Below, piece by piece: positions 21,668 through 21,683 of a DNA stretch of 64,000 nt (its first letter is position 1; each line of letters opens with the position of its first letter). Location: the NCBI RefSeq assembly GCF_044324785.1, contig NZ_CP172127.1; one strand, given 5' to 3'. Origin of the DNA: Escherichia coli. Its GTDB lineage: Bacteria; Pseudomonadota; Gammaproteobacteria; Enterobacterales; Enterobacteriaceae. The notes under the pieces are model-generated. The model was not told the origin of the DNA, searched no databases, and saw nothing but the letters and a program-made list of their open reading frames with translations. The position numbers and the translations under genes are program-made.

Positions 21668-21683
21668 CGGGGCTTTCGCCCCG
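21668..21683 (-). other. intercistronic GC hairpin with GAAA tetraloop between binding-protein and ATPase genes
   Basis: cggggc-gaaa-gccccg on the transcribed strand; 6-bp GC stem read directly in sequence. Confidence 0.4.

Follow-up and report, generated by a model that had tools for sequence, protein, structure and literature searches.

The established model for a protected substrate-binding-protein (SBP) cistron within an ABC transporter mRNA is malE: a 3' structure in the intergenic region protects this message (work of Newbury et al. 1987, summarised in PMC5927463). For malEFG and four other E. coli ABC operons, Dar and Sorek (2018) reported that the stabilised cistron was always the SBP gene (PMC5927463). 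RNA from the 3' region of an SBP gene can also act in trans: SroC, an sRNA or sponge, derives from the 3' region of gltI in the gltIJKL ABC-transporter mRNA, and this region ends in a hairpin (PMC4474525).

Closer to the locus studied here are the CUT2-type sugar operons of E. coli K-12. They have the same gene order, and equivalent structures are found in all four of their SBP-ATPase spacers:

araF-araG spacer: a 10-11-bp GC hairpin; the stretch after the stem is not U-rich
mglB-mglA spacer: a 9-bp hairpin; after the stem, UUAUUGUAU
xylF-xylG spacer: a hairpin; after the stem, UUUCUCUCC
ytfQ-ytfR spacer: REP elements instead of a hairpin; a tail does not apply

For mglB, the Term-seq study of Adams et al. 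2021 (PMC7815308, supplementary file 1) lists, under two conditions, a strong 3' end classed as 'primary' at 2239314 (-). We mapped this end to 5 nt past the mglB hairpin, within UUAUU, and this is direct evidence that the closest analogue of our locus forms a transcript end at such a hairpin. A CLIP-seq paper on mglB concerns the 5' UTR and not the 3' hairpin. In the araF-araG spacer of K-12 (L088:2068-2142), an antisense 3' end, 1985131 (+), lies at the hairpin (Term-seq, PMC7815308); this hairpin has a T-run on the opposite strand and may terminate antisense transcription too.

The Aau operon and its intercistronic hairpin

The DNA analysed is a stretch of 64,000 nucleotides from E. coli, hereafter the window. 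Four transporter genes and an upstream ASCH-domain gene are inserted in it between yahJ and yahK, and this insertion is absent in K-12. The genes correspond to ECs0374-ECs0378 in O157:H7 Sakai and to Z0415-Z0419 on O-island 17 in EDL933, the system called Aau (accessory L-arabinose uptake) by Cottam et al. (Nat Commun 2024; PMC11127945). According to these authors, L-arabinose is the sole inducer and AraC is needed; Aau is over-represented among LEE-positive strains and in phylogroups B1 and E, and cells rely on it to persist in competition in the mouse gut (PMC11127945). The published promoter reporter contained ~300 bp upstream of Z0415, and the hairpin and the internal transcript structure of Aau go unmentioned in that paper (PMC11127945). 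Of the 5426 complete E. coli genomes that we surveyed, 2217 (~41%) carry the hairpin region, each of them once. The operon and the elements around the hairpin are as follows, all on the minus strand:

17108-23374 (-): Aau locus, Z0415-9 / ECs0374-8, O-island 17 (PMC11127945)
22681-22930 (-): region upstream of the operon, expected site of the AraC-dependent L-arabinose promoter (PMC11127945)
21694-22680 (-): periplasmic SBP gene, 328 aa, orthologue of Z0415 / ECs0374 (open reading frame; Pfam Peripla_BP_4, 4.5e-63)
21696-21694 (-): SBP stop codon TAA (open reading frame)
21667-21684 (-): stem-loop U-CGGGGC-GAAA-GCCCCG-A, 7 pairs (6 G-C), GAAA tetraloop, -14.3 kcal/mol; core 21668-21683
21659-21666 (-): tail UUCUUAUU immediately after the stem, single-stranded and rich in U, with 6 U in 8 (sequence, consensus scan)
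21650-21655 (-): Shine-Dalgarno (SD) sequence of the ATPase gene, AGGGGA, 4 nt upstream of the ATG (sequence and alignment)
21645-21643 (-): ATPase start codon ATG (open reading frame)
20161-21645 (-): ABC ATPase gene, double ABC_tran, 494 aa, orthologue of Z0416-7 / ECs0375 (open reading frame, Pfam)
19197-20168 (-): first permease gene, orthologue of Z0418, BPD_transp_2; overlaps the end of the ATPase gene
18244-19230 (-): second permease gene, orthologue of Z0419, BPD_transp_2; last gene of the operon

The downstream Aau cistrons overlap each other. The ATPase gene is intact in this stretch (494 aa); the annotations of EDL933 and Sakai show it split or shortened, and in TUV93-0 it carries a premature stop (PMC11127945). 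RefSeq automatically names the SBP 'autoinducer 2 ABC transporter substrate-binding protein', and since the protein belongs to the published Aau L-arabinose system, this name is probably misleading.

On the plus strand, positions 21668-21683 read cggggctttcgccccg; on the minus strand, which is the sense strand of the operon, the mRNA reads CGGGGC-GAAA-GCCCCG. The original prediction had described exactly this hairpin, between the SBP and ATPase cistrons just after the SBP stop, and the sequence bears this out: the hairpin runs from 21683 to 21668 on the minus strand, sets in 9-10 nt past the SBP stop and ends 21 nt short of the ATPase ATG. U21684 and A21667 add a seventh pair. The fold energy, which had been proposed as a check, came out in its favour: the 18 nt reach -14.3 kcal/mol, whereas dinucleotide shuffles give -4.7 +/- 2.4 kcal/mol (z = -3.9). 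After the stem, the longer stretch reads UUCUUAUUGCC and is followed by the SD sequence AGGGGA. At the base of the stem, GA↓UUC partially matches the RNase E motif RN↓WUU (motif as quoted in PMC5927463). Since the mglB 3' end lies just past its stem, 3' ends of Aau transcripts are predicted, by analogy, in the tail near 21659-21666, where they could arise via leaky termination or exonuclease trimming.

The K-12 spacers resemble that of Aau in transporter class, in gene order and in having a GC-rich hairpin soon after the SBP stop (REPs in ytfQ-ytfR), and the mglB tail UUAUUGUAU is much like the Aau tail UUCUUAUUG; however, the hairpins are not related in sequence, stems in K-12 are longer (9-11 bp), and it is for mglB that a 3' end has been mapped. 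With malE-malF, Aau shares a conserved stable RNA structure directly 3' of the SBP cistron in a polycistronic ABC mRNA, and in both more SBP than membrane-component message is expected. The malE element belongs to the REP repeat family, whereas the Aau element is a unique single-copy 18-nt GNRA hairpin; moreover, the stabilisation of malE has been measured, while that of the Aau SBP message is a prediction. The likeness to SroC lies in an SBP-gene 3' region of an ABC operon that ends in a hairpin; a discrete stable RNA or a trans-acting sequence at Aau would be hypothetical.

Several classes of element were considered and rejected. The Rfam 15 covariance models returned nothing relevant at E<=10 over 16500-24000, and a known RNA family was rejected on these zero relevant matches. 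Neither a related nor a close copy of the hairpin was found elsewhere in the 64-kb window; it occupies one place per genome and is unlike the REP consensus and the two true REPs of the window, so a REP or other repeat was rejected as well. The plus-strand copy of the hairpin (UUUC loop, -13.4 kcal/mol, then AAGAAAUGG) lacks a U-tract, and for this reason a bidirectional terminator or an antisense function was rejected. As a separate observation, an out-of-frame AUG at 21648-21650 (-) overlaps the ATPase SD (GGGGAUGCUAUGG), 5 nt before the true start codon, and is kept in the Escherichia, Klebsiella and Franconibacter spacers.

Taken alone, the hairpin is only moderate evidence of something beyond chance. 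One in 100 shuffles of the 48-nt spacer yields an equally good compact hairpin. On this strand of the window, 17 perfect hairpins reach <= -14 kcal/mol, or about 1 per 3.8 kb, a density that implies a chance of ~1% for one falling in a given 48-nt spacer, and the fold of the 61-nt context is not significant (z = -1.28). Within the species, the 45-nt hairpin segment is identical in 2209 of 2215 E. coli genomes, with six that differ anywhere. In a 7-strain alignment, none of 5 variable sites falls within the 45 of 181 columns that the segment occupies; this has a probability of ~0.24 and is uninformative on constraint. The overall divergence within E. coli is too low for its identity to be a significant sign of constraint. 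One variant was seen in strain N3 (L001:10805-10857), in which a one-G deletion in the 5' arm (CGGGC vs CGGGGC) leaves a fold of ~ -11 kcal/mol in context; the variant may be genuine, or the homopolymer may have been misread in sequencing.

Hairpins in the orthologous spacers

The comparison across species decides the matter. It covers 80 loci with relatives of the SBP (55-100% identity) from Enterobacterales, Pasteurellaceae, Vibrionaceae and Aeromonas; practically every locus retains the SBP-to-ATPase order, and the spacers measure 47-287 nt. A compact hairpin of <= -12 kcal/mol is present in 87% of 77 orthologous SBP/ATPase spacers; for 90-nt controls from the same loci, the figures are 1.3% (upstream of the SBP genes) and 2.6% (inside them) (spacers vs controls, Wilcoxon p about 5e-14). 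In 69 of the 77, the best compact hairpin is equalled by at most 5 of 100 dinucleotide shuffles (median -16.1 vs -5.4 kcal/mol); most of the eight spacers that fail hold hairpins with long loops or irregular stems, which the compact search missed. That almost every orthologous operon has a hairpin at this position is therefore more than chance.

The sequences of these hairpins fall into ~15 families that are unrelated as judged by eye. Within families, the pairing itself is maintained. For the Yersinia family, pairing is seen in 95.8% of cells, with double changes at 5 pairs, and the observed score was attained by 0 of 500 shuffles. The figures for the Vibrionaceae/Morganella family are 96.3% and 3 compensatory pairs, and one pair has switched five times from A-U to G-C. 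When the register is slid in these two families, the paired share falls to 30-69%. On this comparative evidence, the hairpin is real and selected, in that a structure, and not a sequence, is conserved at one position.

The E. coli hairpin groups with those of Klebsiella, Enterobacter pulveris, Franconibacter and Symbiopectobacterium. In this family, the stem base CGGGGC/GCCCCG and the block from the SD to the start are constant, whereas the stem top and the loop vary; CCAGGGG(A/G)TG is conserved in the Escherichia, Klebsiella, Franconibacter and Symbiopectobacterium spacers. At 7 bp, the E. coli stem is shorter than REP pairs and than the 8-16 bp of most orthologues. The GNRA tetraloop, on which the original prediction had laid weight, is indeed there as GAAA in E. 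coli, but it is not retained: GAAA occurs only in E. coli and GCGA only in Franconibacter and E. pulveris, while Klebsiella has CCUGC, Symbiopectobacterium a 3-nt loop and the remaining orthologues loops of 3-12 nt. Judged from these alignments, the GNRA loop is incidental, and GAAA is specific to E. coli.

A few spacers depart from the usual pattern. Those of Yersinia aldovae (L034), Budvicia aquatica (L027) and three further loci (L025, L031 and L032) are enlarged to 198-287 nt by inserted repeats that resemble ERIC/IRU elements. In Y. aldovae, the usual Yersinia GCAGAGCC hairpin is missing and an ERIC-like element, itself a long hairpin, fills the spacer; this replacement suggests that one structured element may substitute for another. 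In Candidatus Symbiopectobacterium sp. 'North America' (L008), the hairpin has collapsed by a deletion (CGGGGCGCCCCG), and two other Symbiopectobacterium genomes have kept an 8-bp stem. Selection may be relaxed in this symbiont, the genome of which is degrading, or the collapse may be an assembly artefact.

Proposed transcript ends and SBP excess, and competing readings

A conserved, sequence-independent and strand-specific hairpin right after the SBP cistron points to an element that shapes the transcript. We propose that the Aau hairpin is a 3'-end-forming, protective stem-loop inside the operon, which uncouples the level of SBP mRNA from that of the remaining Aau message; from the sequence and from the analogy with the systems above, we regard this reading as probable, though with clear reservations. 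The arabinose- and AraC-dependent promoter would drive the polycistronic Aau transcript, and the stem-loop would fold on leaving the polymerase, 9-10 nt beyond the SBP stop and thus at about the leading edge of the terminating ribosome. Transcripts that end at the hairpin, or that are cut behind it, would keep it as their 3' end. Such ends could come from RNase E cuts, either within the AU-rich tail or in the cistrons for the ATPase and the permeases, which have little protection, and possibly also from a minority of polymerases releasing in UUCUUAUU. A hairpin at the 3' terminus would then stop PNPase and RNase II, which degrade RNA in the 3'->5' direction; the SBP cistron would outlive or outnumber the downstream cistrons, and SBP protein would exceed the membrane complex. 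The formation of 3' ends at the hairpin, the block to exonucleases and the stoichiometric effect are steps that we infer.

Three features of a malE-type protective element are found at this locus: a stable sense-strand stem-loop 3' of the SBP cistron, its conservation in the orthologous operons, and a place inside a polycistronic transcript, as indicated by the published co-induction (PMC11127945) together with the gene layout. The original prediction had read the hairpin as protecting the SBP message from 3' decay, giving an excess of binding protein. Its general idea, a protected SBP message, is very probably right and in line with established biology, since the structure is conserved with compensatory changes and malE provides an established model (PMC5927463); what does not stand is the emphasis on the GNRA loop. 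Several points count against a protective role. The U-rich tail fits termination as well as processing, the E. coli stem is short, and most of the protective structures of Dar and Sorek lie inside the downstream coding sequence rather than in spacers (PMC5927463). In the published RNA-seq, which gives fold changes only, the induction of Z0415 is not above that of Z0417 (PMC11127945). Moreover, partial termination, which the original prediction had left out, is an equally direct route to an SBP excess.

The hairpin could primarily be a leaky intrinsic (Rho-independent) terminator, a reading that we consider possible but rather unlikely. Some RNA polymerases would release in UUCUUAUU to give a monocistronic SBP RNA, and the others would go on to transcribe the genes for the ATPase and the permeases; transcription itself would then set the SBP mRNA excess, and 3' protection would be a by-product. 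The Aau hairpin resembles intrinsic terminators in its G+C-rich stem (more than the 5 pairs that such stems have at least), its short and stable 4-nt loop and its U-rich 3' tail, all on the sense strand only, and the orientation fits, the plus-strand copy having no U-tract. In a consensus scan of the surrounding 7.5 kb, it comes first among the terminator-like sites (7 pairs, 6 G-C, tail TTCTTATTGC). With 6 U in the 8 nt after the stem, UUCUUAUU is among the top three of 72 orthologous hairpins, but the U-tract is interrupted (UUC UUA UU). Beside this simple U-count, we used a discriminant d of the d'Aubenton-Carafa type, which combines hairpin and U-tail and was calibrated on four textbook terminators and the neighbouring gene ends; it serves for relative ranking only. 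On this scale, the Aau hairpin scores d=+13.3 (T-score 2.94), the sole positive among 14 gene ends of the locus (the 13 others are < 0) and the second highest among 77 orthologues, of which just 9 have d>0, whereas the four textbook terminators reach d = 25-70. By these sequence scores, the E. coli copy would be a weak intrinsic terminator. The mglB-mglA analogue (tail UUAUUGUAU) adds to the case, as its strong Term-seq 3' end lies inside the tail and is missing from the table of Rho-dependent 3' ends in PMC7815308.

Conservation and expression speak against termination as the main role. Of the 72 orthologous hairpins, 18 have 5 or more U in the 8 nt that follow the GC stem, and ~75% are without a terminator-type tract; therefore, termination cannot be the conserved role. 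Even the closest relatives, which share the stem base, have tails that are not U-tracts (Klebsiella GCUUAACC; Franconibacter and E. pulveris CGCUAACA). In EHEC given L-arabinose, Z0415 was induced 26.5x, Z0417 43x and Z0418 7x, by RNA-seq and RT-qPCR (PMC11127945). Since Z0417 and Z0418 are induced along with Z0415, transcription reads through the hairpin, and termination is at most partial. Thus, the interrupted tract, the intermediate score (for ranking only), a tract that orthologues do not conserve and the co-induction of downstream genes set Aau apart from textbook terminators. It is plausible that the exonuclease barrier is the conserved core activity and that partial termination is an add-on in E. 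coli.

Three other readings were weighed against the protective stem-loop. A neutral palindrome, that is, a chance inverted repeat or the remnant of a mobile element carried in with the island, would fit the shortness of the hairpin, the context fold (61 nt, z=-1.28), the frequency of similar GC-rich hairpins (~1 per 3.8 kb per strand) and the 1-nt deletion in the 5' arm of strain N3; the contrast between 87% of the 77 orthologous spacers and 1-3% of controls, the covariation in two families, and a sequence that is single-copy per genome, without a close copy in the window and outside the REP consensus make it highly unlikely. We give still less weight to a translational device in which the hairpin and the CU-rich stretch after the stop hide the ATPase SD and so keep ATPase translation low or coupled. 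The minimum free energy fold of the 54-nt spacer (-18.0 kcal/mol, 52% of the ensemble) does pair CAUUUCU (21691-21685) with the SD-covering AGGGGAUG, and comparable pairings appear in the folds of Klebsiella, E. pulveris and Franconibacter, but this extension is worth only ~3.7 kcal/mol and includes several G-U pairs. Across 69 distinct spacers, the SD is unpaired at 0.58 in native against 0.49 in shuffled sequences (Wilcoxon p=8e-5; the start codons of some Pasteurellaceae and Vibrionaceae loci are extrapolated from alignments), and in the source stretch at 0.51 against 0.32. SD regions are thus more accessible than in shuffles, on which ground a conserved role in SD sequestration or translational coupling was rejected; the SD segment is invariant among relatives, so that covariation of SD pairing gives no information.

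It is also conceivable that a stable regulatory RNA similar to SroC is cut from the 3' part of the SBP message and acts in trans as an sRNA or sponge. A terminator-like hairpin with a U-rich tail is the form of 3' end that Hfq-dependent sRNAs have, and SroC provides a precedent from an ABC-transporter mRNA, that of gltIJKL (PMC4474525). An Rfam match is absent, however, the hairpin and its upstream flank are conserved only among close relatives, and the sequence offers no pointer to a seed region, so we hold such an RNA to be very improbable. If it did exist, it would form a post-transcriptional link from an EHEC-associated island to the arabinose or virulence regulons, made on arabinose induction.

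As a protective stem-loop, the Aau hairpin alone matters little, being another textbook structure that would skew mRNA stoichiometry in an ABC operon. For expression work on Aau, such as RT-qPCR of Z0415 against Z0417/8 or constructs cloned as fragments, unequal levels across the hairpin are to be expected. Of wider use is the orthologue set, a natural example of selection for 'any stable hairpin here': ~15 unrelated hairpins occupy one position, REP or ERIC-like elements lie beside or instead of them, and U-tracts are in the minority. With this set, one could ask which activity is under selection, exonuclease blocking or termination.

Further observations concern the two ends of the operon and the rest of the window. 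Upstream of the Aau SBP gene, a scan for AraC half-sites gave one weak match, TGCCCGTTTTGTCCATA, at 22813-22829 (-). It resembles an AraC half-site, with 11 of 17 matches to araI1 and 2 mismatches to TAGCN7TCCATA; over the whole 64-kb window, this pattern shows no excess above chance. It is of interest solely because the operon is reported to be AraC-dependent. At the other end, the 86-nt spacer from the last Aau permease gene to yahK (18158-18243, -) has no terminator-like hairpin; therefore, transcripts from the arabinose promoter might extend into yahK, which encodes an NADPH-dependent aldehyde reductase. The two true REPs of the window are identical and canonical (GCCGGATGCGGCGTGAACGCCTTATCCGGC); they lie at 26080-26109 and 26173-26202 (-) between yahG and yahI, likewise inside an operon, in the yahDEFG-yahIJ cluster. 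Strong perfect palindromes (-16 to -23 kcal/mol) are located at 607-636, 6806-6835, 34289-34320, 47164-47191 and 50295-50323. They include two related UGUCGGAUG...CAUCCGACA hairpins and a AAACCGCGCC...GGCGCGGUUU hairpin that has the look of a bidirectional terminator.
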